This document shows positions 6,920 through 36,966 of a stretch of DNA of 64,000 bases, in pieces. Location: sequence record PP993145.1; one strand, 5' to 3'. Every line of letters begins with the position of its first letter. Position 1 is the first letter of the stretch. A model generated the notes under the pieces. That model had not been told where the DNA came from. It saw only the letters and a program-made list of their open reading frames with translations, and ran no database searches. This DNA is from Escherichia phage phiP4. A program made the position numbers and the translations under genes.

Positions 6920-7530
6920 AGACTTTCCCTCAAGGAAAGTGAAATACCAGAGTAAGTACCATTGTTATTTAATGTAGAACCAAAAGAATCAGCATTCATT
7001 AGCTTAGTTCTAAATAAGATACCATTAAAAACTGGTTTTTCACTACCCGTAGTAGTAATAAATAGGTCAGGGTATAAGGATAAGTTCCATACATTTCCTG
7101 AGCTAGTAAAATTTGTTATTTTATAGACTTTTGGGTGATTTGATAATTTAAATAGATCTCCAGCTTTTGGTAGTCCTGTCAAGGTTCCATTAGTATTTAG
7201 TATAATCTGAGAACCTTTCTGTCCTGCTGGTATAGTAACATTTTTAGTATCACCACGTACTCTAAATGCTTCATACTGAGGTAGAAGTACTTCTAGATAA
7301 TCTCCAGTTCTTTTATATTCTAAAATTTTAGAATCTAGGAACGCATATTCATCTGGGAAAAGTTCCGGGTATGATATATTAATTCCCCAGTATTGAGCAG
7401 ATATTTTAACCTCTTTGACTTTACCATTAGGTAATTCATCACGAATCATAGGGTCATTATCTACTACGTTGACGCTTTCAAAACCTAACCCTGGGTATTC
7501 TGGGTTCGTGTATGGATCTGGTAGTCTCAT
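6916..7530 (-). CDS. Distal tail protein (Dit) pb9-like (204 aa)
   Basis: 204 aa, the same as T5 pb9. It sits between the tape measure and hub genes. Confidence 0.8.
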   Translation of the reverse strand: MRLPDPYTNPEYPGLGFESVNVVDNDPMIRDELPNGKVKEVKISAQYWGINISYPELFPDEYAFLDSKILEYKRTGDYLEVLLPQYEAFRVRGDTKNVTIPAGQKGSQIILNTNGTLTGLPKAGDLFKLSNHPKVYKITNFTSSGNVWNLSLYPDLFITTTGSEKPVFNGILFRTKLMNADSFGSTLNNNGTYSGISLSLRESL

Positions 7531-20123: not shown

Positions 20124-20560
20124 TATAAGAACCTTGCGAATCCTGATTTTGTTTCAGTCTTGACTTGTGTCTTTTCTTGAGGATTCTGTAATTTGTCTTT
20201 CTGCTTTTGAACCCACACTTTTTGCTTATTAGCAGAAAATAAGGGAGGTTCTTTTGTGTAAACCTTATGTAATAATTGGTGATGGTGTACACAAAGGGTA
20301 ACAGTGTCTTCTACTAGCTCATGCCTATATCGATCATAGAATGCCGTCCTATTTGAGAGGACTGTTTCTTCGTCAGTGAAATCCAATTGGAGTTCTTTAG
20401 CAAATTTTTTAACTAGTAGAGACACCGTATGGTAATGATGAAGTTCTAATTCTTCAGCACAACCGCAGATAGCACATTGAGAGTCTTTTTTATATTGACT
20501 TTTTATTCCGTCTCTCATAAGGGATATAGCATCGCGTTTATATTTTACATTGCTTGCCAT
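20123..20560 (-). CDS. HNH-family endonuclease (146 aa from the SD-preceded ATG at 20560; ORF track gives 20647)
   Basis: Motifs CAICG...ELHHYH...CVHHHQLLH fit the HNH/zinc-finger pattern. GAGGAGAACACTATG precedes the start. Located between TerL and portal, a common terminase-associated HNH position. Confidence 0.65.
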   Translation of the reverse strand: MASNVKYKRDAISLMRDGIKSQYKKDSQCAICGCAEELELHHYHTVSLLVKKFAKELQLDFTDEETVLSNRTAFYDRYRHELVEDTVTLCVHHHQLLHKVYTKEPPLFSANKQKVWVQKQKDKLQNPQEKTQVKTETKSGFARFL

Positions 20561-20586
20561 AGTGTTCTCCTCAACTGTATGAATAT

Positions 20587-20615
20587 AGTATACATAATCG
20601 TATCGAATTTGTAAA
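20587..20615 (-). promoter_or_regulatory. Candidate sigma70 promoter upstream of HNH/portal genes (-35 TTTACA, 17 bp, -10 TATACT)
   Basis: The reverse complement reads TTTACAaattcgatacgattatgTATACT. Confidence 0.4.
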
Positions 20616-20621
20616 GGGGAT

Positions 20622-20661
20622 TTTAAAATGCAGGAATGGGATACCAACTGAGTAGTATCCC
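20622..20661 (-). terminator. Hairpin/terminator after terL
   Basis: Minus-strand stem GGGATAC...GTATCCC followed by ATTCCTGCATTTT. Confidence 0.45.
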
Positions 20662-20674
20662 ATCCTATACTTAT

Positions 20675-21991
20675 TTATTTACCACGGGAAATAGAGTAAA
20701 TTCCATAGCGCAGCGCATCACAAAGGTGAGAGTTAGCATCATGACGTGGTTTTTCACGTGATAATTTTTCTTCACCTTCTTGGAAATCCCACTTATAGTT
20801 CTGCAATGCATGAATTAATGAGGAACATGAAGCGTCTACAATAATCTTACCCTGCTGGAATAGCGCTTGCAAGCATGCTAGGCCATCTAGGACAGATTTC
20901 TTAGCGGGAGCAGAGGCAATTTCATGTTCATAAGCTAAGTCCTGACGGAACTGAGCTGCTGCAGAGTCAACGAAGATACGATCTACATTATAACGATCTA
21001 TACAGTGCTGAATATACGCAGCATGCTGAGCTGTGGTTTTCTCAGCCTGCTGGTACTCTTCTAATACATAGTAAGTATCTGTATCATAGTGATACTTGAT
21101 AGTAAGAACTGCTGTAGGATCACGATAACCAACGTCAATGCCAAGCAACGTTTCGAATGCTTCATCATCTTTAAAGAAGTGACGCATACCTTTAAGGTCT
21201 TTAACATGATCAATAGCATTAAAGGTATCAAAGATCTGACCTTCGAATACAGAGAAGTCAGCCTCGTATTCTTGGCGGAAGTAGTTTTTACTAACAGTAC
21301 GACGTGCCTCCTCAATATCATTCAGGTCAGCACGTGGATTATCACGATATGTACCATGAATAGATACCCAGTTAGGCAACGTATCATCAAACCCATAGGC
21401 ATAAAATTCTTTAAACCAGTTACCACCACGAGGAGTAGAGATAAACAGAGCCTTAGAATTAGGTTTATCTAGGGTAGGACGCAACTGAACTCTAAAGGCA
21501 TCACCACCTACATCGGAAATTGCCGCCTCGTCAAAGATGATAAAGTCATATGAACGTCCAACCGCGGAGTCGGCCTGCGCCGCGGAAGCTAGTTTAAACA
21601 GCGAGCCGTTTGCCAGCTCAATCTCTTTATCTTTAGCATTCTCACGTTCGGTTTGCAATCCATACTTCTTAATAAGACCACGAATCTGAGACCATCCGAT
21701 GTTGGCTAGTGAATAGTTAGGAGCAACTACTAGTACTTTTACATTAGGTTCCAGCAATTTTAGGAACCCAAGCGTATATGCTATGAAGGATTTACCTACA
21801 CGGCGTGATACACACGCCGTTACAAAACGATGTCTAGGATCTTCTAGCGCATTGATAATTGCTATTTGAGGACCATTAGGTGTAATACCTTCTTGTGCTA
21901 GTATTCCCGAAACAGGTAGACGAAAGAAACGTTTATCTATTCCGAAATCTATAACATCTACTGTATTAACGTAGGGTCTTGATACTTCCAT
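20675..21991 (-). CDS. terL: Terminase large subunit (438 aa)
   Basis: Walker A-like RRVGKSF and Walker B-like FIIFDEAA, a C-terminal nuclease-like region, and the same size as T5 TerL. Confidence 0.9.
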   Translation of the reverse strand: MEVSRPYVNTVDVIDFGIDKRFFRLPVSGILAQEGITPNGPQIAIINALEDPRHRFVTACVSRRVGKSFIAYTLGFLKLLEPNVKVLVVAPNYSLANIGWSQIRGLIKKYGLQTERENAKDKEIELANGSLFKLASAAQADSAVGRSYDFIIFDEAAISDVGGDAFRVQLRPTLDKPNSKALFISTPRGGNWFKEFYAYGFDDTLPNWVSIHGTYRDNPRADLNDIEEARRTVSKNYFRQEYEADFSVFEGQIFDTFNAIDHVKDLKGMRHFFKDDEAFETLLGIDVGYRDPTAVLTIKYHYDTDTYYVLEEYQQAEKTTAQHAAYIQHCIDRYNVDRIFVDSAAAQFRQDLAYEHEIASAPAKKSVLDGLACLQALFQQGKIIVDASCSSLIHALQNYKWDFQEGEEKLSREKPRHDANSHLCDALRYGIYSISRGK

Positions 21992-22473
21992 TACTTCTTA
22001 CCTCCAGTAGCTAGGGAAGTAATTAAGTCCATGTAGTTTTGATCCCCAGCTCCAGCAATAATATTATTCTGGATATTGGTCTGATTAGCAGGAGCACGGA
22101 CGGCAGCTTTAGCTTTTTCTAGTTCCACCATCATTTTCATCTCTTCCATCTTCATTTTATGTGCCTTCCAGAGAATATCCATAATATCCTGGTCAGAACC
22201 CATGCCAGTTTCTTCCAATTCCTCTAGCTTACGTTTAATAACTTCATCTAGAACACCGAACAAACGATCTCTATTACGGAAACCACTTTCCATAAAAATA
22301 TCGTTTAAGTAGTTCTTAACCTCACTACGATTCATAATATCTCGGAAAGCAATTTCGGACATTCCAAGACTACGTGCGGCAGAAGGCACATCACTGCCAC
22401 ACTGTAAATAAGCTTCAATTACATCCATCCCTTCAGGGGACATAAGATCTGGTACTAATACATCATTTGCCAT
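21991..22473 (-). CDS. terS: Terminase small subunit (160 aa)
   Basis: ATGA-coupled immediately upstream of terL. It has an HTH-like N-terminus and a coiled-coil middle region. Confidence 0.65.
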
Positions 22474-25450: not shown

Positions 25451-25551
25451 TTTGACTTTTGCCAAATTTCATAAGATTACACATGGAGGTGTGTCCAGTG
25501 GCCTCCCGGATGAGAATGAGTCTCATTACCGCCTGGTACTTAGCAAGCTAA

Positions 25552-25596
25552 TAGTCACGATATGCAATGATAACATACCGTGACTATTTCAATTTT
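25552..25596 (+). terminator. Convergent-operon hairpin/terminator between the small plus-strand ORFs and dmp
   Basis: Stem TAGTCACG...CGTGACTA (8 bp) followed by TTTCAATTTT. Confidence 0.45.
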
Positions 25597-25601
25597 AATT
25601 A

Positions 25602-26336
25602 TTACGCGACTTTTAATTTCTCAATATATTGTTGCGGGCTGCAACTATATTCTGCGCGTTCTTCCTCGGTCATACTTTCCCAACATAATTTCAATCGGTC
25701 CGCTAGGAACTGATAATCATTATCATCATCAAGCGATTCATCAATAAAGGTTCCGCCTATCAATGCCACGCCGATTGATAGAATATCATTAACGGCTTGC
25801 GCATCCAGCGTTTTAAATCCGTATGATGCCGCCGCCGCCAATACTCCTTTATGGTCATCAATCATTGTAAAATCAGCGTTCGGGTATAATTGTTTGAATA
25901 GCTCGAAATAATAACTTTTATATACTGCATCCTTGCTGTGGTATATTTCGCTAACCTTATCAGCCGTAAAATATTTGTGAAGTGTATCGCGGGAAAATAC
26001 ACGGATATTGGTATCCCCACGCCCGCGCAATCCTTGTTTGCGTAGGAAGTAATAATCTGACTTGCTCATCAGGCGAGCGGTGCAAATAATGTTTAAAGTA
26101 TTTGCGTCATTCATGCATTGGCGCATATATTCCACCAAAGGCAATAAAGTATCTTGCATTATTAAATGATGCTTGCAAGCCTCGTTTTTGTATTTATTTA
26201 AATCTAAATTCCCGTCGCTATCAAAGCAAGGCGCTACACGATGGAATGAATTAACGATAGTGCCATCAAGATCCCAAATCATGACGCGGGAAATATGCGG
26301 AAAATTACGGGTAATATTCGTTTTAACTTGATTCAT
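25602..26336 (-). CDS. dmp: 5'-deoxyribonucleotidase (pre-early), HAD-type (244 aa from ATG 26336; ORF track start 26378)
   Basis: HAD motif I VMIWDLDGTIVNS. 244 aa from the SD-preceded MNQVKT start, equal to the size I recall for T5 Dmp. Synteny with A1 and A2. Confidence 0.75.
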   Translation of the reverse strand: MNQVKTNITRNFPHISRVMIWDLDGTIVNSFHRVAPCFDSDGNLDLNKYKNEACKHHLIMQDTLLPLVEYMRQCMNDANTLNIICTARLMSKSDYYFLRKQGLRGRGDTNIRVFSRDTLHKYFTADKVSEIYHSKDAVYKSYYFELFKQLYPNADFTMIDDHKGVLAAAASYGFKTLDAQAVNDILSIGVALIGGTFIDESLDDDNDYQFLADRLKLCWESMTEEERAEYSCSPQQYIEKLKVA

Positions 26337-26416
26337 TTTGTTACGTTCTCCAATAAAGGGATCTAGTTTATCCAGCATTGCCCGCTATTTATAAGCGGGC
26401 AATAATAAATCAACTA

Positions 26417-26809
26417 TTAAAGGCCATAAGCCAACGCATCAGCGATAAAACTAATATCCTCGCCAGATACACCGGAACGAATACCAGCACAAGTATATAC
26501 TTTCGCGCTAGATAGCTGATCATCAAAGCAAGCTGGGCAAGGCGCGACAACTGCAAACGCAAGGCCAGCTTTCACGGCGTCGATGATAATCGTTTCCTGC
26601 TTCACCGTATCAACATAAACGCCCGCGGCCTTGATGTGACTACTTGCGCGGCCTTGCGTATAGGCGAAAGTCGTGATCTGTAGCGCCTCATTAAACTCAA
26701 TTAAGTCATCAACAACGTGACCGGCCTCAACGTGATACCGCTCACCATTTGAATAAACCAGAACGATTGAGGACTGAGCGCGATCGAATGGAATATTTTG
26801 CTTTTTCAT
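26417..26809 (-). CDS. Pre-early hypothetical protein (130 aa)
   Basis: ORF between A1 and dmp with E. coli-like codon usage. No motif recognised. Confidence 0.6.
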   Translation of the reverse strand: MKKQNIPFDRAQSSIVLVYSNGERYHVEAGHVVDDLIEFNEALQITTFAYTQGRASSHIKAAGVYVDTVKQETIIIDAVKAGLAFAVVAPCPACFDDQLSSAKVYTCAGIRSGVSGEDISFIADALAYGL

Positions 26810-26881
26810 ATTTATAAAACTCCAATTAATTTAATAAACTTTTATAGCGGCTATATTTCAAGCCGCTGGGGAATAATTTAA

Positions 26882-28546
26882 TTACGCGAAAAATTTGCCG
26901 TTTTTAAAGTCAATCAAAGTGCGCTGCCCGTTCGCATAGGTAATTAAATGCGTTTGCGTCCAACTTGACGCGCCAACGTTGTAACCCATATCCAGACTAC
27001 CAGCAACGCCAGCGGTATAAACGCCGCCGTAAATGCTGGCGGTGTGGGTGTGCCCCGTGTTTAATTTGCCCAATTTCTTAAACTGCTTCGGATTACCACG
27101 GCTGCCGTTAATGCCGTTGTGACCGTGTACGCCGCATTCAATGCCTGCAATTTTAAATGATTGGTCAGTGGTCAGGAAAATTGCGTTAAACTCGCAACCT
27201 GCGACGTCACGCAGCGCATAATCCAGCACGTTGAAAGTATCGTCATGATTACCGATTGCCGCGTAAATCGCAGCATTAAGGCGGTGATATAGTTCCGCAT
27301 TGGCTGGATCGTCTTTAATGTTAGCATTGCGATCATCAAGCCAACGGGATAACGCCAAATCGTGGTTTGATTCGACAATGATCGTTTGACTAAAATCGCG
27401 CTCCATTGACTCCAGCACGCGCCCGGTATCGATCAGATCATCCAGAACTTTATCACGTCCGGCTGCATACTGTTTCGCTAGGAATACACCAGAGGCGCGA
27501 TTATGATGATTGCGCGATGTAAAATCATGCACGTCATGCACAAACTGATATTTAGGCTTGAGAATATCAAGCAAGCTGTTTTCGCCAGCCCATGACGCTG
27601 CGGCGCACTCCTCATCTAATTTCTCGGCGTGTACGTCGCCATATTGCAAGCCTAAAACATGCCCCGACGTTTCAAAACATCCGGCGGGAGTGGCGCAAAT
27701 ATTCAAATCGTAAAACATGCCGCTTTCGTCCATCGTTTCAAGCTGGCGAACAAAAAATTCCCCGTCCTCGTCGAACTCAACAATCAGCGCACCGTAATTA
27801 TGCAGCGCCTCCGCTTTTTGCCCTGCTTTTTGCTGAATGTAGTTTTTGAGCGTTGCCGTTCCGGTTGAGTACATGCGGCGTACTACTTCACCTTTGAGAG
27901 CTGGCACGCTTTCAGCGGTGATTTTAGCGTGACCAATTGCCAGACCTTCCAGATTAAGCGCGGTTGCAGTTTCAGCAAATCCAGATAGCGGATAATCTGC
28001 CGTTGGCAAAACATTAATTTCAGCCATGAAAGCAAAACGGCGATTGTTTAAAAACACGTTTTTGCTGCAAATATATTTATCAAACGCGGAATCATATTTT
28101 ACACCGTCTGCGCCTTCTCCGTTCTGAAAACCGTTTTTATTATAAATATACTTAGAAACAAGCAAATCAGCGCCGATAAATTTAGCATATTGTTCAAGCG
28201 AGGCTAAAAAGTTTTTATGCGGGAAAGTATTGTTCTGAATTGATGTAATAATAAAGCGTTTGCCCTGTTTTACTTCCCACTGTTCCACCGTGCTGGAAAT
28301 AATTCCAGCCGCCTCGGGGCGCTCGTCGTTTTTAATGGCTTTTGCTACTTTCGCCGCTTTTGGTTTTGCTGGTTTATTTGCTTCCAGCCAATCACAAATC
28401 GCGGTCGAGTGTTTCGTTGTATCGTAGACCGCTTTTGATATATCGTCGCAGACTTCCAGCTTAGTAGCGCGCAGACGTTTACCGTAGAAATTAAAGTCAG
28501 CGGCCAGCTTCAGGATAACGGTTTGTTTTTCTGCGGAAATAATCAT
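26882..28546 (-). CDS. A1: Pre-early protein A1-like, metallophosphoesterase-type (554 aa from SD-preceded ATG at 28546; ORF track start 28636)
   Basis: Calcineurin-like phosphoesterase motif series (GDVH, VHDVHDF, ESNHD, GVHGHNG, TGHTHT). Size is close to T5 A1 (556 aa as I recall), and it is adjacent to A2 and dmp. Confidence 0.75.
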   Translation of the reverse strand: MIISAEKQTVILKLAADFNFYGKRLRATKLEVCDDISKAVYDTTKHSTAICDWLEANKPAKPKAAKVAKAIKNDERPEAAGIISSTVEQWEVKQGKRFIITSIQNNTFPHKNFLASLEQYAKFIGADLLVSKYIYNKNGFQNGEGADGVKYDSAFDKYICSKNVFLNNRRFAFMAEINVLPTADYPLSGFAETATALNLEGLAIGHAKITAESVPALKGEVVRRMYSTGTATLKNYIQQKAGQKAEALHNYGALIVEFDEDGEFFVRQLETMDESGMFYDLNICATPAGCFETSGHVLGLQYGDVHAEKLDEECAAASWAGENSLLDILKPKYQFVHDVHDFTSRNHHNRASGVFLAKQYAAGRDKVLDDLIDTGRVLESMERDFSQTIIVESNHDLALSRWLDDRNANIKDDPANAELYHRLNAAIYAAIGNHDDTFNVLDYALRDVAGCEFNAIFLTTDQSFKIAGIECGVHGHNGINGSRGNPKQFKKLGKLNTGHTHTASIYGGVYTAGVAGSLDMGYNVGASSWTQTHLITYANGQRTLIDFKNGKFFA

Positions 28547-28635
28547 AATAATAAACTCCATTAAAGGGATAAGGTTAATAACGGCAATATTGCCAAATAT
28601 AACGCCTCCAATAATAGGCGTTATAATTTGCAACA

Positions 28636-28833
28636 TTAATTTAAAGGCATCAGGCTAGAACTAACACCACAAACAACGGCGGCAATAAAACAAATCAGGC
28701 CCAAACGCTTCGCTAACTTAGATTTGCGTTTAAAATAATACGAATCTAAATCATTTTGAAAATATGCGAACAATAACGAGGCCGCCATAATAAATAAGCC
28801 TAGAATCAACGATTCAGTAGGGTAAAAGATCAT
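28636..28833 (-). CDS. Small two-TM membrane protein (65 aa from SD-preceded ATG 28833)
   Basis: MIFYPTESLILGLFIMAASLLFAYF...LGLICFIAAVVCGVSS, preceded by an SD (ctggagttattaaaATG). Confidence 0.5.
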   Translation of the reverse strand: MIFYPTESLILGLFIMAASLLFAYFQNDLDSYYFKRKSKLAKRLGLICFIAAVVCGVSSSLMPLN

Positions 28834-28890
28834 TTTAATAACTCCAGTTAAAGGGAAATTATAGTGGGGAATAATCCCCACTATTTAAAT

Positions 28891-29298
28891 TTATTCACCT
28901 GCGGCCTGTTTTACTTCATCGGCAACGCCTAACAACTGCGCCACGGCGTCCAGCGTTTCCAGCTTCGCGCTTTCAAGGCTTGCCAGATCATCGGCGTCCT
29001 TGATAATGCCGGAATCAATAGCGTGTTTTGCAATCACTCGCACGTAATGAGCTTTGCGGATTGAACTACCGCCGCCAACTTTGCGCGGCTTATCGCTTTT
29101 TTGATATGCTTTCGCGCTGGTCAATTTTGAGCGAACTGACACGGGAGAAGCCGCGCCAACTGCTTTCGCAATCTCTTTCAGGCCGTCGCTATTTGCGAAA
29201 TCTAAACCGTTTTCATTGATTAACTGCTGATACATGGTAACAGCTTTTTGGGTGTTTTCTTCGTTCCAAGAAAATTTTGCGGTTTTTGCGTTAGTCAT
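28891..29298 (-). CDS. A2: Pre-early DNA-binding protein A2-like (135 aa)
   Basis: Its 135 aa equals T5 A2, and it lies immediately upstream of A1. Confidence 0.7.
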   Translation of the reverse strand: MTNAKTAKFSWNEENTQKAVTMYQQLINENGLDFANSDGLKEIAKAVGAASPVSVRSKLTSAKAYQKSDKPRKVGGGSSIRKAHYVRVIAKHAIDSGIIKDADDLASLESAKLETLDAVAQLLGVADEVKQAAGE

Positions 29299-29398
29299 GG
29301 TAAAAACTCCAATTAATTTAATTTAAGGGATTAAATGATTAACTAATGTTAATCGTTATATGCCCCGAACTACTGGGGCATATAAAGTTAACACTATA

Positions 29399-29650
29399 TT
29401 ATAAAACGGCTTCCCATTTTTCGTTACGTTGAACAACCTTTACAACGTCGCCGGATTTAACGCGAACGCTAAAAACGGTTTTTCCGTTGTTACTGCGCTC
29501 ATTTTCAGCGTATACCGCGTCGATTGTATCAAACGGCATAAGCGCCGCGCCTTTAATACGTTCGGCTTTTCCGGTTAATTCATCCGTTTTAGTAACGAAA
29601 GGAATAAAAACAGATTGACCAATTTTCGGCGCGGTAATAACGTTTTGCAT
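29399..29650 (-). CDS. Pre-early hypothetical protein (83 aa)
   Basis: ORF with an SD (aactggagtttatattATG), upstream of A2. Confidence 0.55.
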   Translation of the reverse strand: MQNVITAPKIGQSVFIPFVTKTDELTGKAERIKGAALMPFDTIDAVYAENERSNNGKTVFSVRVKSGDVVKVVQRNEKWEAVL

Positions 29651-29687
29651 AATATAAACTCCAGTTTATTTGATGGATTGTTCCGCA

Positions 29688-29715
29688 TTATCTGCTAGAA
29701 AATACTAGCAGATAA
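29688..29715. promoter_or_regulatory. Perfect 11-bp inverted repeat TTATCTGCTAG-aaaata-CTAGCAGATAA (operator-like) upstream of the leftward pre-early operon
   Basis: Palindrome read directly from the sequence. It overlaps a GATAAT -10-like hexamer on the minus strand. The TAGCAGA half-site recurs at 30636 and 30697. Confidence 0.55.
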
Positions 29716-29853
29716 TAAGAAGAAATCCGCTCGCCATTATAAAATCAATTTAAGGAACTCCACGCGGGCCGCTATATCCCAGTTAGGGGGCGGGATGCAT
29801 TATGGTAAGCACCGACCGTCAAATTGTATCAAGTTATCGCTCTTATCGAACTG

Positions 29854-29876
29854 GGTACATCTTAAAGCCTATCGGC
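29854..29876. repeat. Left copy of 23-bp inverted repeat (GGTACATCTTAAAGCCTATCGGC) flanking the 67-aa ORF
   Basis: Its reverse complement matches 30120..30142 at 22 of 23 positions. Confidence 0.85.
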
Positions 29877-29883
29877 TAGGTTG

Positions 29884-30087
29884 TCAAACTATTTTTTGCA
29901 GTTTTTTATGATTTTCCTTCAGGTCGATCATAATATTTCGCCAGATCATTTCTAGTCCTTGCTGGCGGCCTTTCTTGTACTGCTCAAATCGATATTTTAC
30001 CGATCTTTGCGCTACTGTCAATAAATTTTTTGTTTTGCTATCCAGTGCCTTGCTAGGTTTACCAGTGATCAATAAAGTTTGTTTCAT
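29884..30087 (-). CDS. Small basic protein (67 aa) bracketed by a 23-bp inverted repeat
   Basis: ORF MKQTLLITGKPSKALDSKTKNLLTVAQRSVKYRFEQYKKGRQQG..., Lys/Arg/Gln-rich. Function unknown. Confidence 0.45.
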   Translation of the reverse strand: MKQTLLITGKPSKALDSKTKNLLTVAQRSVKYRFEQYKKGRQQGLEMIWRNIMIDLKENHKKLQKIV

Positions 30088-30119
30088 ATCGTCGATTCCT
30101 TATAATGAATAAGTTTACC

Positions 30120-30142
30120 GCCGATAGGCTTTAAGATATACC
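30120..30142. repeat. Right copy of 23-bp inverted repeat flanking the 67-aa ORF
   Basis: GCCGATAGGCTTTAAGATATACC, with one mismatch to the reverse complement of 29854..29876. Confidence 0.85.
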
Positions 30143-30635
30143 CAATTTTTAAAGAGCGCGGCGGTAAACTCCCCGCCGTGTAGTTCGTCATTGCCGCCCT
30201 ACGAGATAAATAATAACAAACAACGAAAAAGGCGCAACCTTATATTTGTAAAGAAATGTAAAGACAAACGCCACCGGACACCGTGCGGCGACCTGGGCGC
30301 GGCGCATTAAAATTAAAAGAAACGGGCGCGCGAATACCACAAAACACAGCAGATAGGCAAGTAATTTTTTCATTTATATTTGCTTTGCCCTACTTGACAA
30401 AATCTAAAAAGCTCGTGGCAGCGATAAACGGCTTATCCCCTTATGATGGGATGGCTAAAAACTTTATTGCGTTCTGGGGCGTTTTAGGCCGCCTATTTTC
30501 GACTTAACAAATCATTAACAAACGCAAAATTGAAAAATAGTTGGAAAAGGTCTTGACTTTTAAAAATCAAGATCAAATGACTTATTTTATAAAATAAATT
30601 AATTGACTTTTATTTGTTAGTATGCATCGGAAAGA

Positions 30636-30714
30636 TAGCAGACTATTAATCACTAGAAGGATGATCATGCTGGTGGATTGTAACGGCCTGAATTATTAGC
30701 AGACTATTAATCAC
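30636..30714 (+). repeat. Two 18-bp direct repeats TAGCAGACTATTAATCAC (30636-30653 and 30697-30714)
   Basis: Identical 18-mers with starts 61 bp apart. They share the TAGCAGA core with the palindrome at 29688. Confidence 0.8.
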
Positions 30715-30776
30715 GGAAAAACTCATTAGCCAACTAACTATTTCATGATATATAATATACTTATAAATTAATGAGA

Positions 30777-30857
30777 AATAATAACTATAAGAAATCATCA
30801 CCATTATAATAATAACTATAAGAAATCATCACCATTATAATAATAACTATAAGAAAC
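30777..30857 (+). repeat. 31-bp tandem repeat AATAATAACTATAAGAAATCATCACCATTAT x about 2.6
   Basis: Two exact copies plus a 19-nt partial third copy, read directly. Confidence 0.85.
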
Positions 30858-30866
30858 TATCGGCAT

Positions 30867-30998
30867 AAGTGAGAACCACTATCATTTAAGTTATCCACAA
30901 TGTTATCCACAGCACAAAATAATTTGACACGATAGGCGGCGATATAAGGGCTTATCCACAGACTTATCCACAGGTTATCCTACTGTATAAATATACAG
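30867..30998. repeat. Left arm of large imperfect inverted repeat (pairs with 34010..34143)
   Basis: AAGTGAGAACCACT...TTATCCACA...TTGACA...CTTATCCACAGACTTATCCACAGGTTATCCTACTGTATAAATATACAG aligns along its whole length with the reverse complement of the right arm. Confidence 0.75.
30891..30983 (+). promoter_or_regulatory. DnaA-box cluster: 4 perfect TTATCCACA (30891, 30903, 30952, 30964) plus TTATCCTAC (30975)
   Basis: Exact matches to the 9-mer DnaA box consensus TTATCCACA, read directly. Confidence 0.8.
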
Positions 30999-31263
30999 GG
31001 TAAAAAGGCAGTGTTAACGACTGCAATCAATTTTAAGCGGCCTAAAACGCTTTCTAACGAGCTAAACGCTGTGGGGTAATATTAAAGTAAAGACCCAACG
31101 CGGTGCCCTGGTGGCTTCGCCGTGTTTTGCTCTTTACCGTACCGCTGCGCGGTTATCATAAAAATAGGCGTTAGGCAAGGAAAATAAAAAAGTAAAATAA
31201 TCTTTGCCTATGCTAGAAAATTACCCTTATCATTTACTCACCGATTAACGAGAGGGCCAACAA

Positions 31264-32256
31264 ATGAGGCTATATAAACCAGATAACGCAACCGTCTTAA
31301 AAGGTGCGCTGCGTAACCTGCTGGATGGTAGCAGAACAACCAGCATCCGGCATTTTGTTTTCAATATTGAAACTATTCATCAAAACTTTTTTGATGAATA
31401 TGACGCTTATAATATGAATAGTTTTCTACCGTTATATAAACAAGGGGCAACGCTTGTTTTGTATAATCAGGATTATCAATTGCTCACTAGTCGGGGGCCG
31501 GATACTGATTTCATAATCGTAAAAGGCAACACAGTAAAAGCCTATGATACTGGGGCGGGCTTAGAAGTTTTTTCAATAGAAAACTATGAGGCTAATGATA
31601 ATGATCTTTATGACGTAGAAAATTTTCTTGATTCATTTTGGCGTTATTTATCAGTTGGCTGGAATCGGTCGGATTCTGATGGGTATCGTTTTGCGGCTAT
31701 AATGGCCTTCGATGATAACGGTAATTTTTTGCTACCGTCGGAACTATGCCCGTATGTTTATAATGATCTGATACAGGAGGCCGGTTTTACTTTCTGGAAA
31801 GATGAGGATCAGATTATTAACAGTATAGAAAAACATGCTGTAAATTCTAACACTCAAAGCGTTATCACTCAAACTACTGAAAATAAAGGAAAAAACACTA
31901 TGACCAAGATCGCTAACATCGTTGCCGCCAATAAGTCTGCCGTTGTAAACGCTGCAAAACTGGAAGCGGGTAAAATTGCACTAACTCAAATCACGAAAGT
32001 AGCGGCTAAAAAAGCACCGTTCATGATCAAAGGTTATATCGATACGCCGATTGGTCGCGTAGTAATCGCTAACCTGCTGAGTGTAGCGGTTGACCAGTAC
32101 GCCCCGAGTAACCAGAAAGCGAAAGCGGTAGCGGGGGCGGCTATGGAAGCGGCAATGTTGGAAATGGTGCAAAGTTTTAACATCGCTGAGATGATCGATG
32201 AAATGGTAAAAGGTATCGATATTTCTACTTTTACCAATAACACCGAAAACGAGTAA
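31264..32256 (+). CDS. Hypothetical protein (330 aa), possibly two in-frame products (internal SD+ATG at 31900)
   Basis: Long ORF. The N-terminal ~210 aa are Asp/Asn/Phe/Tyr-rich, and the C-terminal ~118 aa are Ala/Lys-rich and amphipathic, preceded by AAGGAAAAAACACTATG. Confidence 0.6.
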   Translation: MRLYKPDNATVLKGALRNLLDGSRTTSIRHFVFNIETIHQNFFDEYDAYNMNSFLPLYKQGATLVLYNQDYQLLTSRGPDTDFIIVKGNTVKAYDTGAGLEVFSIENYEANDNDLYDVENFLDSFWRYLSVGWNRSDSDGYRFAAIMAFDDNGNFLLPSELCPYVYNDLIQEAGFTFWKDEDQIINSIEKHAVNSNTQSVITQTTENKGKNTMTKIANIVAANKSAVVNAAKLEAGKIALTQITKVAAKKAPFMIKGYIDTPIGRVVIANLLSVAVDQYAPSNQKAKAVAGAAMEAAMLEMVQSFNIAEMIDEMVKGIDISTFTNNTENE

Positions 32257-32283
32257 TAACTAGCCCATTGTAAAGTTTTGTAA

Positions 32284-32311
32284 AGGCCGCCTTTTATGGT
32301 GGCCTTTTTTG
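32284..32311 (+). terminator. Rho-independent terminator after the 330-aa ORF
   Basis: GGCCGCC-TTTTAT-GGTGGCC followed by TTTTTT. Confidence 0.7.
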
Positions 32312-32376
32312 TTATAATGCCTTTACACCGTTTGAGGACGGTTGAAAATTTTCCCAAAAAATTTTGGAGGCTTAAA

Positions 32377-32607
32377 ATGGTTGCTTTTTCTTCTTCTGAC
32401 GCTCTTTTCACTGGAAAAGGCTGGGTATCAAATCGCTGGATTATTCAGGAAATGGTGCAAGAGTACGGCATTGCTAAAACTTATACTACCATTCAGGCGC
32501 TTTATGATAATGATCAAATCGATCAGCAAACGGCGGGCTTTTTACTGGATACCCTGAAGGCGGAACACTGTACCAAAAAACAAGCCGCTAAAATTGTTTT
32601 AATGTAA
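32377..32607 (+). CDS. Hypothetical protein (76 aa from SD-preceded ATG 32377; ORF track start 32296)
   Basis: TTGGAGGCTTAAAATG ribosome-binding context. The ORF-track N-terminal extension overlaps the terminator. Confidence 0.55.
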   Translation: MVAFSSSDALFTGKGWVSNRWIIQEMVQEYGIAKTYTTIQALYDNDQIDQQTAGFLLDTLKAEHCTKKQAAKIVLM

Positions 32608-32656
32608 TTAATAACGGGGCGAAAGTATCGCCCCACTAACTAGGGGAGTATCACAA

Positions 32657-32839
32657 ATGATTATTTTTCGAGCTTTTTTAGCGGGTATCTTGGGAGCTAT
32701 TTTGACCCTTTTCGCCACCGCTTACGGTATTCAGGATTCCTATTGCGGTTTGGTAAACACAAAACCTATGGTTACTATAGGCGCTGGTATCGCTGTATTT
32801 TCTTATCTGCTGGGCTGCATGAATAGTAAAGGAGAATAA
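32657..32839 (+). CDS. Small two-TM membrane protein (60 aa)
   Basis: Hydrophobic segments FRAFLAGILGAILTLFATAYGI and VTIGAGIAVFSYLLGCM. SD taggggagtatcacaaATG. Confidence 0.55.
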   Translation: MIIFRAFLAGILGAILTLFATAYGIQDSYCGLVNTKPMVTIGAGIAVFSYLLGCMNSKGE

Positions 32840-32841
32840 AA

Positions 32842-33054
32842 ATGATCCGCAACGTTTCTCTTGCACGTTCGAAAGGTTTTAAGCTGGTGGACGCTAACAC
32901 GTTCGAGCGTCCAGATTGCAAGATCGAATATGTAGCACGTAATAAAAATGCCTTTCGTGTTACCGAGAAAAAATTTGATAAGCGCGGCAACGTGATCCTT
33001 GAAACGGTTAGGCACTTTGCCACCTTTTACGCTGCATTTCGTGGGGTACTATGA
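32842..33054 (+). CDS. Hypothetical basic protein (70 aa)
   Basis: SD aaaggagaataaaaATG. ATGA overlap with the next ORF. Confidence 0.55.
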   Translation: MIRNVSLARSKGFKLVDANTFERPDCKIEYVARNKNAFRVTEKKFDKRGNVILETVRHFATFYAAFRGVL

Positions 33055-33194
33055 AAAGCGTTATTGTTGTTATCCTTGCAATGGCTGGCGGTTTTATCGC
33101 CACCTTATTTAAGAATGATCCCACTTCGTTGGGTATCTTTATGCTTTTATCGGGCTATCTGATCGGGAGGTTGTCAAATGATAGCGCAAATTAA
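33051..33194 (+). CDS. Small membrane protein (47 aa)
   Basis: Hand-translated as MKSVIVVILAMAGGFIATLFKNDPTSLGIFMLLSGYLIGRLSNDSAN, translationally coupled. Confidence 0.45.
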   Translation: MKSVIVVILAMAGGFIATLFKNDPTSLGIFMLLSGYLIGRLSNDSAN

Positions 33195-33300
33195 AACGGC
33201 TTTTCGTTTTTGGGGCGTCCTGCCTTCAATTGGTTTTATTCTGATAATCATTAGTCAGCTAATGATTATCGTTGGCGTTATCTGGGAGCTATGCAAATGA
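33178..33300 (+). CDS. Small membrane protein (40 aa)
   Basis: MIAQIKTAFRFWGVLPSIGFILIIISQLMIIVGVIWELCK, preceded by an SD (GGGAGG). Confidence 0.45.
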   Translation: MIAQIKTAFRFWGVLPSIGFILIIISQLMIIVGVIWELCK

Positions 33301-33641
33301 TCATTTACGAGGGCAATCGCTTTGTTGCTAATTGCCGCCCGGCATTGTTAGCAAACTATTTAAACCAGCTTTCACCAGCTTATAAGGGCGTTATTAATAT
33401 TTACGAGGGCAAGGCGCATTATAAAATCAATGCGGTCGTTGCCCGTGAACTAGCGTTTCAATTTTTAACCTTTGCATCTTGCGACGTTCAGGTTATGGGT
33501 GAGGCGTTAATTGCAGAAAATGAAGACGATTTTATTAATATTTTCCGTAAGGTATGCACCGAGCGCCTGATAATCAAAGGCGCATATATTCAATCCACGG
33601 CTGATAGTATTGAAACAGCGTTTCGAAAGGTGGCGCAATGA
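33291..33641 (+). CDS. Hypothetical protein (116 aa)
   Basis: ORF coupled to its flanking small ORFs. No motif recognised. Confidence 0.55.
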   Translation: MQMIIYEGNRFVANCRPALLANYLNQLSPAYKGVINIYEGKAHYKINAVVARELAFQFLTFASCDVQVMGEALIAENEDDFINIFRKVCTERLIIKGAYIQSTADSIETAFRKVAQ

Positions 33642-33751
33642 AACGATGGTTTAATCACTGGTACAAGCGGTTTTTAGTACGCCGTCGCAAGTCTAGGCAT
33701 CAAGATGAGTGGCGGGAGTGGGCAAAGCGTAACGGTTGCCCACTAATATAA
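33638..33751 (+). CDS. Small Arg/Trp-rich protein (37 aa)
   Basis: MKRWFNHWYKRFLVRRRKSRHQDEWREWAKRNGCPLI, with an ATGA overlap with the upstream ORF. Confidence 0.35.
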   Translation: MKRWFNHWYKRFLVRRRKSRHQDEWREWAKRNGCPLI

Positions 33752-33790
33752 TAATCACGGGGCGCAACTATCAGGGAGTGCCCCCAATTT

Positions 33791-33813
33791 TCAAATGATA
33801 ATCATTCTCATTT
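33791..33813. promoter_or_regulatory. Fur-box-like palindrome TCAAATGATAATCATTCTCATTT
   Basis: TCAAATGATAATCATTCTC matches the 19-bp Fur consensus GATAATGATAATCATTATC at 15 of 19 positions (hand alignment). Confidence 0.5.
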
Positions 33814-34009
33814 GACCGCGCCCGCGATGGTTAGCCTGCTAATGGTTCGGGTGTTACGTGTCGCCTTGTGTGATCGTTAGCTCGCTAACTAATTTTCAAG
33901 CCTCCTCCAATTTTGCCCTTGTTTTAGTATCCCCACCAAAATTAAACGCGTTAGAATGCGTTTGAGAGCGTTTTAACGCTATATTAGAATTATTCGCTGC
34001 GTAGGAATA

Positions 34010-34143
34010 CTGTATATTTATCCAGTAGGATAAGCTGTGGATAAGTCTGTTAATAACGCCTCAAAATGGCTAGGGTTTTGTCAAGTCAAATCGTGCTGTT
34101 AATAAGTCTGTGGATAACTTAAATAACAGTGTTTCTCACTTCC
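34010..34143. repeat. Right arm of large imperfect inverted repeat (pairs with 30867..30998)
   Basis: Its reverse complement reads CAGACTTATCCACAGCTTATCCTACTGGATAAATATACAG...GAAGTGAGAAACACT..., colinear with the left arm. Confidence 0.75.
34025..34117 (-). promoter_or_regulatory. DnaA-box cluster on opposite strand: TGTGGATAA at 34036 and 34109, GTAGGATAA at 34025, degenerate TGTTAATAA at 34048 and 34097
   Basis: Two exact reverse complements of TTATCCACA plus three variants, mirroring the left arm. Confidence 0.75.
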
Positions 34144-34149
34144 GTTCTT

Positions 34150-34367
34150 AAATGAGAATCATTATCATTTGTATTTCACTATCTAACTAATAATCATTCC
34201 ACTATCTAACTAATAATCATTCCACTTTCTAAATGAGAATCATTCCGCTTTTTAAATGAGAATCATTTCACTTTTTAAATGAGATTGATTCTCATTTCAC
34301 TTTCTAAATGCGAATTATTATCATTCTCATTCCGCTTTTTAAATGAGAATGATTCTTATTATCATTC
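34150..34367. repeat. Degenerate ~23-bp tandem array (6 copies) of AAATGAGAATCATT(N)C(N)CTTTTT containing Fur-box-like palindromes
   Basis: Copies start at 34150, 34231, 34254, 34277, 34306 and 34341. The first (TTAAATGAGAATCATTATC) matches the Fur consensus at 15 of 19 positions. 34277-34297 is the palindrome AAATGAGA-TTGAT-TCTCATTT. Confidence 0.7.
34177..34222 (+). repeat. 23-bp exact tandem duplication CACTATCTAACTAATAATCATTC x2
   Basis: Read directly from the sequence. Confidence 0.85.
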
Positions 34368-34374
34368 GTATTTA

Positions 34375-34400
34375 GCGCAGAGCAATTGCTCTGCGCTTTT
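34375..34400 (+). terminator. Perfect 22-bp palindrome GCGCAGAGCAATTGCTCTGCGC followed by TTTT
   Basis: Perfect hairpin with a T-run. It separates the AT-rich Fur-like array from the iteron array. Confidence 0.55.
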
Positions 34401-35000
34401 GTGCAAATCCGACATTGCTCCACGGGTGTTACGTGCGGGCGTGTATGTGCGAATCCGACAATTTTTGGTAGTGTGCAAATCCGACCCGAAAAATTTTTAT
34501 AGTGTGCAAATCCGACAATGAATTTTCCTAAAAACTCCAGCAATCCGATGCTGCGCATCAATCCTGTGGAATTAGCTAGAGTATGTGCAAATCCGACATG
34601 GGTTTATTTGTGCGAATCCGACAAGATTTTTGTGACTTCGATTGGAGGGTGTGTGATTGTGTGGGTTTGGGGAGAAGTTGAGAGAGCGAGAGAAAATAAG
34701 AGGAGAAGCTAGAGGGGCAGCAGTGGTGGCGTGCAACGCCTGATTTGCTGCGTTTTTGGGGAGAGTTGAAAAGATTTGGGTTAATTTGAGATTAGTGGAG
34801 ATAAAGTAAAATTTTATTAGCAAAATGGGGCAAAATAGCTTGACAAGTGAAAATTTCTGTGGCTCTAAAAACTCAGGCAATCACGGGCCTTCGGCCCGAA
34901 ATAATGCTGCCATTTTCAGGAGATTATATGTTCCTAAAAACTTAGGCAATTGTGCAAATCCGACCATAAATTTCTAGAAACACAATGTGCAAATCCGACA
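34401..35000 (+). repeat. Iteron array: 8 same-orientation copies of GTGC(A/G)AATCCGAC(A/C)
   Basis: Copies at 34401, 34447, 34473, 34504, 34585, 34610, 34952 and 34987. They are interspersed with CCTAAAAACT..GGCAAT (34527, 34865, 34932) and TTTCTAGAAA-type motifs, and there is no credible ORF. Confidence 0.85.
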
Positions 35001-35043
35001 GTAATTTCTGGAAATGTGTTTTCAAAAAATGTCTCCTAGAAAT

Positions 35044-35114
35044 AACCGCCCTCCCCATAACCGCCCTGTATTAAACCGCCTAGTATATGTTCCTAGAAAC
35101 TTGGGAGAACCGCC
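35044..35114 (+). repeat. Four direct AACCGCC heptamers (35044, 35059, 35074, 35108)
   Basis: Read directly. The first three are spaced 15 bp apart. Confidence 0.6.
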
Positions 35115-35249
35115 CACTAGAAGCGTGAGATCTCGTGAGTATTTCGTGAGAACTCTGGAGTTTCTAGGAAAGTGTTGTGCCATCCTAGCAGATGAGCGGC
35201 AACCGGTGTATCATCTTGAATGTAAATTATGTGGTCAAAAGTTTTACCT

Positions 35250-35431
35250 TTAATTTAAGTATAAGATCCCCCAAGATTGGAAGAGATGCTCCACCCCTGG
35301 GATACGAATTGCGTGAGATGGTACAAAACTTCTTAAGATTTCCCTAGTCCTTCGACAAGCTACGGGGGAAATAGAAGTTTCCCATCCACCATCCGTATCC
35401 GGGTGGATCTCTTTATTCTATGTTATTTCAT
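35250..35431 (-). ncRNA. Candidate non-coding transcript/leader driven by the promoter at 35438..35466, reading into the repeat region
   Basis: No ORF longer than 10 codons lies downstream of a consensus promoter. It contains hairpins ATCCACC...GGTGGAT and GGGAAA...TTTCCC. Confidence 0.3.
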
Positions 35432-35437
35432 AGAGTT

Positions 35438-35466
35438 ATTATAACATGCAGAAATCATAACGTCAA
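35438..35466 (-). promoter_or_regulatory. Early-type sigma70 promoter (-35 TTGACG, 17 bp, -10 TATAAT) pointing toward the terminal-repeat block
   Basis: The reverse complement reads TTGACGttatgatttctgcatgtTATAAT. Confidence 0.55.
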
Positions 35467-35473
35467 GTAGAGT

Positions 35474-36364
35474 TTATTCATCGAACATGAGATTTCCTTT
35501 CATCCCCATCTCCGCATACTCCATGAGTTCTTTGATGGATCTCACGGGGTAATCTACTTTACTAAAGTTATCATAGATCTTACATGAACTCTCATACAAC
35601 TCGTTAGGTATCTGCAATTTGTTATCTGTTAGCTTCTCATAACGTGCAGAAGAATTTGTACCGTCAAACAGAACTGCGATAACTGCGGCGATTTGTTTAG
35701 TAAGATCATCTGCTCCTAGAATTATTCTATTAATAGCAATCGTTACTTCATGCTTAGGTTTAGCAGGTGGAAGGATAGGTTTGAGATCCTTAGGTAAAGG
35801 TTCTGTTCCTAGGAATCCTTCTTTTGTGCGGAACCAATAATTATCTAGATCAGATATCGTCTTAGACTTATTCCAAATAGTGAAGCAGGGTTTATTTCCT
35901 TCACGATCTCTGTATTCACGAATTGGAAGGTAATGATCAGGGAATGAATTGAGTGCATCATGCATCGGTGAGCCTGTCTTTTTGAATGACAAACCATACA
36001 ACTCATTATAATTCATAACTTCATCTTCGTAAACATGGAAATCTTTATATGCTGGAAGATTAAACCATTCCTGAAGTGAATGAACTGCAAAACGTTGTGC
36101 CCAAGCATGCATCACTAGAACTCTGTATTCTTTTACTTCATCTTTTGGAGAAGTACCTTTAGCTGTTCTAGCTGAACGAATACAGAACATCTCAACAACA
36201 CGTTTCTCATTTAAAGAGAGTTCAGAATAACAACGTTCATGGCAACCTTCTAGCATTTCTAGAAGTTCACGTAGTTTCTCTACATCGACCGGTGGAAAAG
36301 GTCTTTCTTCAACTGCGAATTTACCAGTTACACCTTTTGGTTTTCTATTACTATAAAATCCCAT
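35474..36364 (-). CDS. Hypothetical early protein (296 aa)
   Basis: Long ORF, ATGA-coupled to the upstream gene. No motif recognised. Confidence 0.7.
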   Translation of the reverse strand: MGFYSNRKPKGVTGKFAVEERPFPPVDVEKLRELLEMLEGCHERCYSELSLNEKRVVEMFCIRSARTAKGTSPKDEVKEYRVLVMHAWAQRFAVHSLQEWFNLPAYKDFHVYEDEVMNYNELYGLSFKKTGSPMHDALNSFPDHYLPIREYRDREGNKPCFTIWNKSKTISDLDNYWFRTKEGFLGTEPLPKDLKPILPPAKPKHEVTIAINRIILGADDLTKQIAAVIAVLFDGTNSSARYEKLTDNKLQIPNELYESSCKIYDNFSKVDYPVRSIKELMEYAEMGMKGNLMFDE

Positions 36365-36966
36365 TAATTACCTCTCTTATCTTCATTAATAGCAGCTCCC
36401 AACGCTTCAAGGATAGCATCACTCATACTCCCAGGCTTAAGATTATTAAAGTGAGTAACATAAATGGGACTTCTAAAACCCTTAGCATCCGCAGGTGCTA
36501 CGCTTCGCATATCAGATTCAAAAGCTTCTTGAGTGTGTTTCAACTGTACAGAAGGGCCGTAATCTTCCCCAAACTTATATGACTGCGTACTACTTACCAC
36601 ACTCCCACAAGGAACATTGTGCAAATCCGGTGATTTATTTAGCATTGAGATTGTCCCTGACTGCCACGGATCTCTAATAGTCACTGGAGTACTAGGGCGG
36701 TTCACCTCAGTCTTCACAAGTTTATATCCTGCATCGATTAATACGTTAATTAGATTATCAGCTGGGATGCGAGCCTTACCAAAAATCTTACGAGCATCTT
36801 CGAGCTTATCCTCAAGATCTTTACACGCTCTAAGGTCAGTGTGTGCAAATGTTAGCTTCATGGATTTGAATTGTACAGTAGCAGTTAGATCTTTAAAGCT
36901 ATAATCCCATGTGTTCAGTTCATGGTCTGGTACTACTTGAATAGATTGTTGTACATTAAAAGTCAT
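36364..36966 (-). CDS. Hypothetical early protein (200 aa)
   Basis: ORF coupled to its neighbours. Confidence 0.7.
   Translation of the reverse strand: MTFNVQQSIQVVPDHELNTWDYSFKDLTATVQFKSMKLTFAHTDLRACKDLEDKLEDARKIFGKARIPADNLINVLIDAGYKLVKTEVNRPSTPVTIRDPWQSGTISMLNKSPDLHNVPCGSVVSSTQSYKFGEDYGPSVQLKHTQEAFESDMRSVAPADAKGFRSPIYVTHFNNLKPGSMSDAILEALGAAINEDKRGN

Follow-up and report, generated by a model that had tools for sequence, protein, structure and literature searches.

Bacteriophage T5 arrests after 8% injection of its genome, later restarts, and cuts its 10-kb terminal repeats (TRs); how these events are brought about has been a question for more than 50 years, and the non-coding region that carries a series of short repeats is thought to be the cis-acting key. 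In the T5 record AY587007, eight of these repeats bear the name 'direct repeat D' and are numbered as copies 1 to 8; copy 1 directly follows the features 'palindrome J' and 'major single-stranded nick 1, 7.9%' (9661–9668), and the same record annotates a copy 9 (one mismatch) and a copy 10, about 2 kb further, inside ORF019. A second T5 record, AY543070, gives the injection stop signal (iss) as a misc_feature at 9140–10149 and the end of the left TR at 10219. Davison (2020) included 'nine copies of direct repeat DRD' when listing what is conserved in Repeat Region 3, put the shear point of first-step transfer at about 9618, and placed the likely stop element to the left of direct repeat D (DRD), in IRD′-spacer-IRC′ and DRE; by its own statement, that model gives the DRD repeats no role (10.1101/866236). 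Two papers of 2026 treat the region in general terms only; we found no role for the DRD series in the literature searched up to that year, and a text search of this literature for the 13-mer string returned no match. Here we examine a series of eight such 13-mers at positions 34401–35114 of a 64,000-nucleotide stretch of Escherichia phage phiP4 (PP993145.1), which we refer to as the window.

Judging from alignment and annotation, the eight 13-mers of the window are homologues of T5 DRD copies 1–8, located in Repeat Region 3, where the long TR has its right edge. With the DRD sequence and the definition of its copies taken from the GenBank annotation, the unit GTGC(A/G)AATCCGAC is matched exactly by eight of eight copies on a single strand. 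The pattern GTGCRAATCCGAC has eight exact matches in the window, all on the plus strand and each assigned by alignment to annotated T5: copy 1 at 34401–34413 (GTGCAAATCCGAC), copy 2 at 34447–34459 (GTGCGAATCCGAC), copies 3 to 6 at 34473–34485, 34504–34516, 34585–34597 and 34610–34622, and copies 7 and 8 at 34952–34964 and 34987–34999. T5 carries the same eight in identical order, matching those of the window one for one, and the grouping of six copies, a gap and two further copies is shared. When up to two mismatches are allowed, 12 matches are found in the window against 1.18 expected, a number that none of 100 shuffles reached. The sequence-only reading of this DNA had described eight iterons at these positions, all on one strand, and these are real; what it missed is their identity as annotated T5 repeats. 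The element is thus not a new one but the T5 DRD series, of which the window provides one further homologue.

Two of the four additional matches with up to two mismatches fall in the part of tRNA genes that encodes the T-arm (57139, tRNA-Asn; 59299, tRNA-Leu), and another, at 59403, adjoins the tRNA-Leu gene; we take the resemblance of the motif to the T-arm (GTTCGAATCC) as coincidence. A degenerate homologue of T5 DRD copy 10 (GTGCAAATCCGGT, two mismatches) lies at 36619–36631 on the plus strand, inside the ORF019 homologue encoded on the minus strand at 36364–36966. About 20 relatives carry counterparts with at most one mismatch, at about +1.9 to +2.9 kb, and this 13-mer is too rare for its presence within a coding gene to be chance. 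The start-to-start spacings of the eight copies (46, 26, 31, 81, 25, 342 and 35 bp) have no common helical phase, and helical phasing was rejected on this ground. An A/T run had also been noted after the motif; it is present in seven of eight copies (at least 8 A/T in the next 12 bases), but the effect is modest given a background of about 60%.

The surroundings of the array agree with this identification. More than 500 records of T5-like phages (family Demerecviridae) match the tract by BLAST, and it lies about 9–10 kb from the start in records that begin at the physical left end. The window assembly is itself a T5-like phage with the long TR collapsed to a single copy: terminase, receptor-binding and lytic-conversion genes lie to the left of the TR, the pre-early genes dmp, A1 and A2 inside it, and early genes to its right. 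The perfect 24-bp palindrome AGCGCAGAGCAATTGCTCTGCGCT (34374–34397), found by repeat search and T5 alignment, is homologous to T5 palindrome J; the earlier description of it as perfect is correct, and the length given there, 22 bp, is 2 bp too short. Its right arm contains CTCTGCGC (34389–34396), the counterpart of the T5 nick-site 8-mer CCCTGCGC at major nick 1 (7.9%). The array begins 5 bp past this palindrome and nick-site homologue, and it runs from there across the right TR end, in the region that extends from the pre-early genes to the T5.018 homologue. The T5 iss feature, which covers DRD1–6, aligns to homologous sequence in the window throughout, and its location is likewise in the non-coding right part of the left TR, at about 7.9–8.4% of the genome.

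We place the right TR end, which would also be the right physical genome end, at 34865|34866 (...CTGTGGCTC|TAAAAACTCAGGCAAT) by homology to the end of the T5 record, to phages BF23 and Sw2 (the TRs of both were set by PhageTerm), to Pectobacterium phage My1 and to Klebsiella phage GZ8. The T5 record ends ...TTTCTGTGGCTC, the BF23 TR ends ...TTGTGGATC|TAAAAACTCAGGCAAT, and the TR ends of Sw2, My1 and GZ8 are at the same homologous position. Of the IMG/VR contigs with both TRs, six have their end exactly at ...CTGTGGCTC, one a base further on, and one at ...CTGTGGCCC; homology to T5 may have been the basis on which some of these ends were set. The left TR end was placed at 25491|25492 by alignment to the start of the T5 right TR, so that the TR would span approximately 25492–34865 (9.4 kb). 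With the right end at this position, copies 1–6 lie inside the TR and copies 7–8 in unique DNA: copy 6, the last within the TR, starts 256 bp before its end, and 86 and 121 bases separate the end from the first base of copies 7 and 8, respectively. Offsets from the terminus are therefore −465, −419, −393, −362, −281, −256, +86 and +121 in the window, compared with −467 to −258, +86 and +121 in T5. The earlier suggestion that a terminal-repeat boundary must lie near the array is borne out by this homology, which sets it between copies 6 and 7. The second CTAAAAACT motif is at the position of the cut, which is followed by a GC hairpin. No DRD-like site was found by the left TR boundary in a scan of the window, and a comparison of the left and right T5 termini for a shared cut motif gave a faint inverted resemblance (GTGTCCACTG versus GAGCCACAG). 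In the record of Vibrio phage Quinn (locus L013, position 7735), the TR boundary stands at CCTGCGCC|T, directly before the first DRD and therefore at the left array edge, unlike in T5, BF23, Sw2, My1 and GZ8, where it follows a TTGACT element; either the difference is real or the end was mis-called at a nick.

We then compared the array across relatives. In 20 distinct Markadamsvirinae sequences that are 78–94% identical to the window over the tract, DRD columns have a conservation of 0.97 with 71% invariant, versus 0.82 and 46% for the other columns. In 47 of 47 IMG/VR loci all copies are on one strand, with none opposite. The 13-mer is also present in phages whose flanks are beyond detection by BLAST. 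In the Klebsiella phages Roth39 and GZ8, BLAST detects no more than about 75 bp at the terminus, and five and four copies of ATGTGCRWWWCCGAYR flank it; My1, which belongs to another subfamily, has six copies inside its recorded end and four outside; and Quinn, whose A1 is approximately 30% identical, carries GGTGCAAATCCGAC and variants after its CCTGCGCC site. In the metagenomic locus L033 (A2 40% identical), five units are packed head to tail with a 15-bp period, and in Vibrio phage D25 three units are packed with a 13-bp period; this packing indicates a site of at most 13–15 bp. The motif has diverged in a few lineages: in the same slot, Aeromonas phage AhSzw-1 has GTACTTATCCGAC, GTACTTWTTCGAT and GTAGAAATTCGAY, and the Vibrio phages D25 and VspSw_1 have GTGCGAAWYCTAT-type units. 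Within a genome, all copies have changed together in the Aeromonas and some Vibrio lineages. Proteus phage M4H10_20 has one DRD-like copy beside its CCCTGCGCC and a different repeat further on. Beyond the terminus-like element in three distant lineages, L033 (~8480–8620), L073 (~5360–5400) and L074 (~7400–7420), the repeat is GTAGTCT(A/G)TTTTT and not DRD.

For hosts, we scanned one genome for each of 185,579 bacterial and archaeal species for two motifs 5–35 bp apart. No such pairs or arrays of 13-mers occurred in Enterobacterales or Vibrio chromosomes; the eight matches consisted of two mis-binned T5-like contigs and six unrelated tandem repeats. A contig labelled uncultured bacterium (L017, CAZMBF010000179.1) contains, at about 430–640, approximately ten tandem 22-bp iteron-like units (GACTATAAAATGGTGCAATCGA), two of which contain the exact 13-mer GTGCAAATCCGAC; the array also includes GGTGCAAATCCGAC. 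This contig is unrelated, and we set the array aside as probably a coincidence.

One explanation that fits these results very well is that each 13-mer is the binding site of one sequence-specific protein, read in a single orientation and no longer than 13–15 bp; we regard this as very likely from the comparisons. The description of the array as iteron-like, in the sense of many sites for one protein, is consistent with the superior conservation of the 13-mer columns, the single strand in 47 loci, the packing at 13–15 bp and the concerted change of copies; the cooperative binding that had been proposed with it is unsupported; the spacing is irregular and not helically phased. If the 13-mers are such sites, their reader is probably encoded by the phage and not by the host, given the concerted change of the motif in some lineages and the absence of paired motifs from the host chromosomes scanned. 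Concerted change is what would be expected of a phage protein that co-evolves with its sites, unlike a conserved host factor.

Two phage proteins are candidates. The first is the pre-early protein A2 (135 aa; gene at 28891–29298, minus strand), with a predicted N-terminal helix-turn-helix (HTH)-like domain that includes the nearly invariant helix S..SVR.KL; the other is the small terminase subunit (TerS, 160 aa; gene at 21991–22473, minus strand). The two occur in nearly the same lineages across the family, and we found no solved structure of either. A2 is reported to have been purified as a DNA-binding dimer, to bind A1, to be membrane-associated and to be essential for second-step transfer (10.1101/866236, PMC5408693). 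Our structural model of A2 (mean predicted local distance difference test score 85.5) has an N-terminal helical domain with an HTH-like pair of helices at residues 38–47 and 52–61, then a low-confidence, non-helical basic stretch and C-terminal helices; a fold search returned weak matches to transposase HTH, Myb and LexA N-terminal domains. Helix 52–61 holds the most highly conserved A2 residues, the S..SVR.KL motif, and some of its variation runs parallel to that of the DNA motif: VRSKL is found in six lineages in which the GTGCRRA half-site is retained, VRQKL in Aeromonas, where the left half-site has changed, and VRTKL in Proteus, where the array is nearly lost, with VRGKL in L033, which has the canonical motif, as an exception. 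The Aeromonas A2 is moreover the most divergent A2 (34%), and the Aeromonas TerS is not unusually divergent (46–47%). The HTH-like N-terminal segment of TerS, its putative DNA-binding part, differs strongly among lineages with an identical 13-mer (EEPKFREIMRK in Klebsiella, KEVDCRLMLQK in My1, DKQRVLQVLDS in L033). Because this segment varies under a constant 13-mer and the divergence in Aeromonas is in A2 and not in TerS, the sequence evidence leans slightly towards A2. A2 and terminase had both been named as candidates from the window alone, and both stay in play.

Our tentative proposal, which we hold at somewhat below an even chance, is that A2 is the reader and acts in the restart of DNA transfer. 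The first DRD cluster would be the first DNA to move when paused first-step transfer restarts; A2, alone or with A1, might load on the same-orientation sites, upon which the stalled DNA would be released or pulled. Alternatively, A2 sites might mark where A1 and A2 act in both TRs. In its full form, the proposal would have the DRD 13-mers as specific A2 targets that co-evolve with A2 across the Demerecviridae, with the loading of A2 (with A1) acting as the restart pair or directing A1/A2 in both TRs; we consider this possible but on balance doubtful. That any protein binds, that this protein is A2, and that binding is linked to restart are all steps that we infer, and several observations weigh against them. 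The fold matches of A2 are not statistically significant (best E 0.7). The co-variation of helix and motif rests on very few lineages and has the L033 exception (VRGKL with a canonical motif); D25 and VspSw_1 retain VRSKL despite the changed right half of their motif, and Proteus phage M4H10_20 has A2 yet only a single DRD-like copy. Copies 7–8, and copy 10 about 2 kb on, lie outside the TR, where restart has no obvious need for them, and the array brackets the genome end, which is more naturally explained by packaging. Finally, the sites would be out of reach of cytoplasmic A2 until restart if the paused DNA past the stop is still in the tail or envelope.

The position of the array invites an alternative scenario in which the DRD clusters are recognition sites for TerS and position the cut that makes the right TR end and starts packaging. 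We consider this possible, if somewhat unlikely, and a role of terminase in TR-end recognition is nearly as likely as reading by A2. Cluster 1 (−465 to −256) lies before the TR end and cluster 2 (+86 and +121) after it, so that in the window, by homology, and in five lineages with recorded TR ends the repeats adjoin the cut site; the same two-cluster bracket surrounds the recorded end in T5, BF23, Sw2, My1 and GZ8, and the 75 bp immediately inside the end is the most deeply conserved stretch of the tract. The lack of DRD at the left TR boundary would fit a single initiation site, terS and terL lie about 3 kb to the left of that boundary, and under a last-in-first-out rule packaging would start at the right end, where the sites lie, although the packaging direction of T5 is itself an inference. 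The spacing of 25–81 bp would suit wrapping around a TerS ring, and lambda cosB R elements beside cosN, like the hexamer clusters flanking the P1 pac cleavage site, would be analogues. Against this scenario, the HTH-like segment of TerS is highly variable where the 13-mer is identical and the Aeromonas TerS is not unusually divergent though the motif has changed, which is the reverse of what sites read by this segment should give. The cluster past the terminus-like element is a different repeat in D25, VspSw_1 and L033, and the Quinn record puts its TR boundary at the left array edge and not within the array. A literature search found no published data on specific binding by TerS or the holoterminase.

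Three further explanations are less probable. The 13-mers could bind a conserved host DNA-binding protein that helps to hold or organise the incoming DNA, as has been proposed for the DnaA boxes upstream, and the nearby SOS-box-like and Fur-box-like elements may act likewise. Phages of Escherichia, Salmonella, Klebsiella, Pectobacterium and Vibrio whose proteins are at 30–40% identity have the motif in almost unvaried form, the DnaA boxes behave in the same way (10.1101/866236), and the neighbouring DNA is dense in host-type boxes. The motif has nevertheless changed in concert in the Aeromonas and some Vibrio phages and is nearly lost in a Proteus phage; the hosts concerned are no more distant than those of phages that keep it, and paired motifs are missing from the host chromosomes scanned; a host factor, which had been among the candidates initially put forward, is weakened by both results, and we judge it improbable. 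To our knowledge, the 13-mer matches no host consensus; among the herpes simplex virus (HSV) UL9 box, the CRP, IHF and FadR sites and other consensus sites known to us, none is convincing and none is claimed. A plasmid-like replication origin, composed of DnaA boxes, AT-rich repeats and 13-mers and bound by an early phage initiator such as the UL9-like helicase D2, appears more improbable still. The layout resembles that of an iteron origin: the DnaA boxes (34036 and 34109) are followed by the AT-rich 23-bp repeats (34150–34365) and then by the direct repeats. T5 D2, a putative origin-binding helicase, has an HTH and is without an assigned origin sequence (PMC3632103). Electron microscopy cited by Davison, however, puts the origins close to mid-genome (10.1101/866236). 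The array has no rep-type gene beside it, the flanking open reading frames (ORFs) being without Rep-like family matches, and the 13-bp unit and irregular spacing differ from typical iterons of 17–22 bp. We also considered that the first DRD directs a nicking enzyme to the adjacent GCGC and thereby sets the 7.9% nick, since in T5, the window and the Klebsiella, Quinn, Aeromonas and Proteus phages the first DRD-like copy is preceded, at 2–5 nt, by a CTGCGC-type consensus. However, T5 major nick 2 has the same 8-mer CCCTGCGC with no DRD beside it, and the window, which by the T5 offset should include the nick-2 homologue, has no DRD-like site beyond the array, the copy-10 homologue and the tRNA matches. 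A determining role of DRD in nicking is therefore highly improbable, and we rejected it.

The array is interleaved with other short motifs, as the sequence-only reading had observed. CTAAAAACTNNRGCAAT has three exact copies in the tract (34528, 34865 and 34934) and no other in the window, versus 0.05 expected; its first copy (34528–34544, plus strand) overlaps a terminator-like hairpin and T-run on the minus strand, and its third (34934–34950, plus strand) immediately precedes DRD7. AACCGCCY occurs four times within 72 bp on the plus strand (35044–35115; copies at 35044, 35059, 35074 and 35108), and the last two 13-mers are each followed, after a few bases, by TTTCTRGAAA (34971 and 35005). Klebsiella, Pectobacterium (My1 and L060), Proteus and Aeromonas relatives have one or more copies of AACCGCCC, in most cases a pair, on the right-hand side of the terminus element, for instance to the right of DRD cluster 2 at 2982/3011 in L010, ~13015 in L011 and ~13363 in L071, with a single copy in Proteus; this suggests that a further conserved site, independent of the first, is present here. 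Between DRD cluster 1 and the terminus element is a purine/G-rich spacer (34640–34800, plus strand) whose sequence varies, with a G-rich tract in every lineage examined. In the equivalent G-rich region, between DRD cluster 1 and the TTGACA/terminus-like element, the Chi sequence GCTGGTGG occurs in My1 (L011, ~12590), Proteus M4H10_20 (L014, ~6240) and Vibrio D25 (L073, ~5770), in the orientation active for RecBCD entering from the right genome end; Chi is absent from the window and from T5. The terminus-proximal block at 34799–34871 (plus strand), which includes TTGACA at 34840–34845, is the sole part of the tract that BLAST still detects in Klebsiella T5-like phages. The GC hairpin CGGGCC-TTC-GGCCCG (34884–34898, minus strand), followed by a T-run supplied by the second CTAAAAACTNNRGCAAT copy, probably terminates the leftward early operon. 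The Sw2 record has a minus-strand terminator just past the TR end, where the same hairpin sequence sits, and the Klebsiella phages keep the hairpin with a different sequence.

The ORFs called across this tract had been dismissed as artefacts, which holds for four of the five in-frame stretches at 34346–35194: these are broken by stops and/or indels that are not multiples of three in most of 19 related genomes. The exception is the stretch at 34825–34977 (plus strand), which is open in 15 of 20 genomes and lies within a block of very high nucleotide conservation. In view of the stops and indels in relatives, the reading frames are not conserved and we treated the tract as non-coding. Pfam searches of the neighbouring proteins returned only domains of unknown function, and an Rfam E-value scan of 33500–35600 returned only chance-level matches, far under gathering scores, so a structured RNA was rejected.

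Several host-type elements lie in or around the TR. An SOS-box-like (LexA) palindrome at 34009–34024 (CTGTATATTTATCCAG) stands beside the DnaA boxes; its counterpart at about 9411–9430 in T5 AY543070 is TACTGTATAAATATACAGTA, a perfect CTGT-N8-ACAG, and an equivalent CTGTAT...ATACAG palindrome is found in My1, Quinn, Proteus, Aeromonas, D25, VspSw_1 and L033. Six perfect DnaA boxes TGTGGATAA (0.8 expected) are arranged in pairs, at 34036 and 34109 on the plus strand and at 30891, 30903, 30952 and 30964 on the minus strand, and these pairs match Repeat Regions 3 and 2 of Davison. Fur-box-like hexamer arrays (AATGAKAATSATT; for example CAAATGATAATCATTCTCATTTG) give 18 matches versus 0.75 expected, all within the TR: 13 at 33794–34360, so that they are densest immediately to the left of the DRD array, and three at 25515–25727, by the left TR boundary. 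Similar elements stand at this place in Klebsiella, Pectobacterium, Aeromonas and Vibrio (VspSw_1) relatives, and we found no mention of Fur boxes in the T5 literature searched. Further to the left, between the portal and large terminase genes, a 174-aa ORF (20123–20647, minus strand) has the HNH-type motif C..C...HH.H......HHH..LH, a placement that recalls the HNH-terminase pairing of some cos phages.

These comparisons narrow the search for the function of the region to a site of at most 13–15 bp with one reading orientation and probably a phage protein as its reader. To the existing annotation they add depth of conservation, a minimal site size, concerted variants, a fixed place between the nick consensus and the repeat end, and a ranked pair of candidate readers. 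The question is thereby reduced to whether A2 or TerS binds this 13-mer, a directly testable pairing of protein and site for two-step transfer or end formation; if the DRD repeats prove to be A2 targets, this would be the first defined protein–DNA interaction in the mechanism of T5 second-step transfer.

Set beside known systems, the array of the window is closest to the T5 DRD series, with which it shares the 13-mer, strand, order of copies 1–8, near-identical spacing and neighbours (palindrome J and the nick site to the left, the TR end in the gap, and T5.018/019 homologues to the right). It differs in that copy 9 is missing, the sequence diverging there at about 35120, in that its copy-10 homologue has two mismatches, and in that A and G at motif position 5 are exchanged between some copies. 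Plasmid iteron origins such as RK2 oriV likewise have same-orientation repeats next to DnaA boxes and AT-rich repeats, but here the spacing of the 13-bp unit ranges irregularly from 25 to 342 bp and an adjacent initiator gene is lacking. Lambda cosB R elements, P1 pac hexamers and SPP1 pacL/pacR resemble DRD as short clustered repeats on both sides of a genome end, tens to hundreds of bp from the cut; here, however, the putative DNA-binding segment of TerS varies while the motif is constant, the TR is about 9–10 kb long, and the second cut site is distant and without such an array. The SRL and SRR arrays that flank the 160-bp terminal repetition of T7 are a further parallel, being arrays of a short motif beside a direct terminal repeat with no established function, although their motif and phage family are different and the T5 arrays stand at one end only of a repeat that is approximately 60 times longer.

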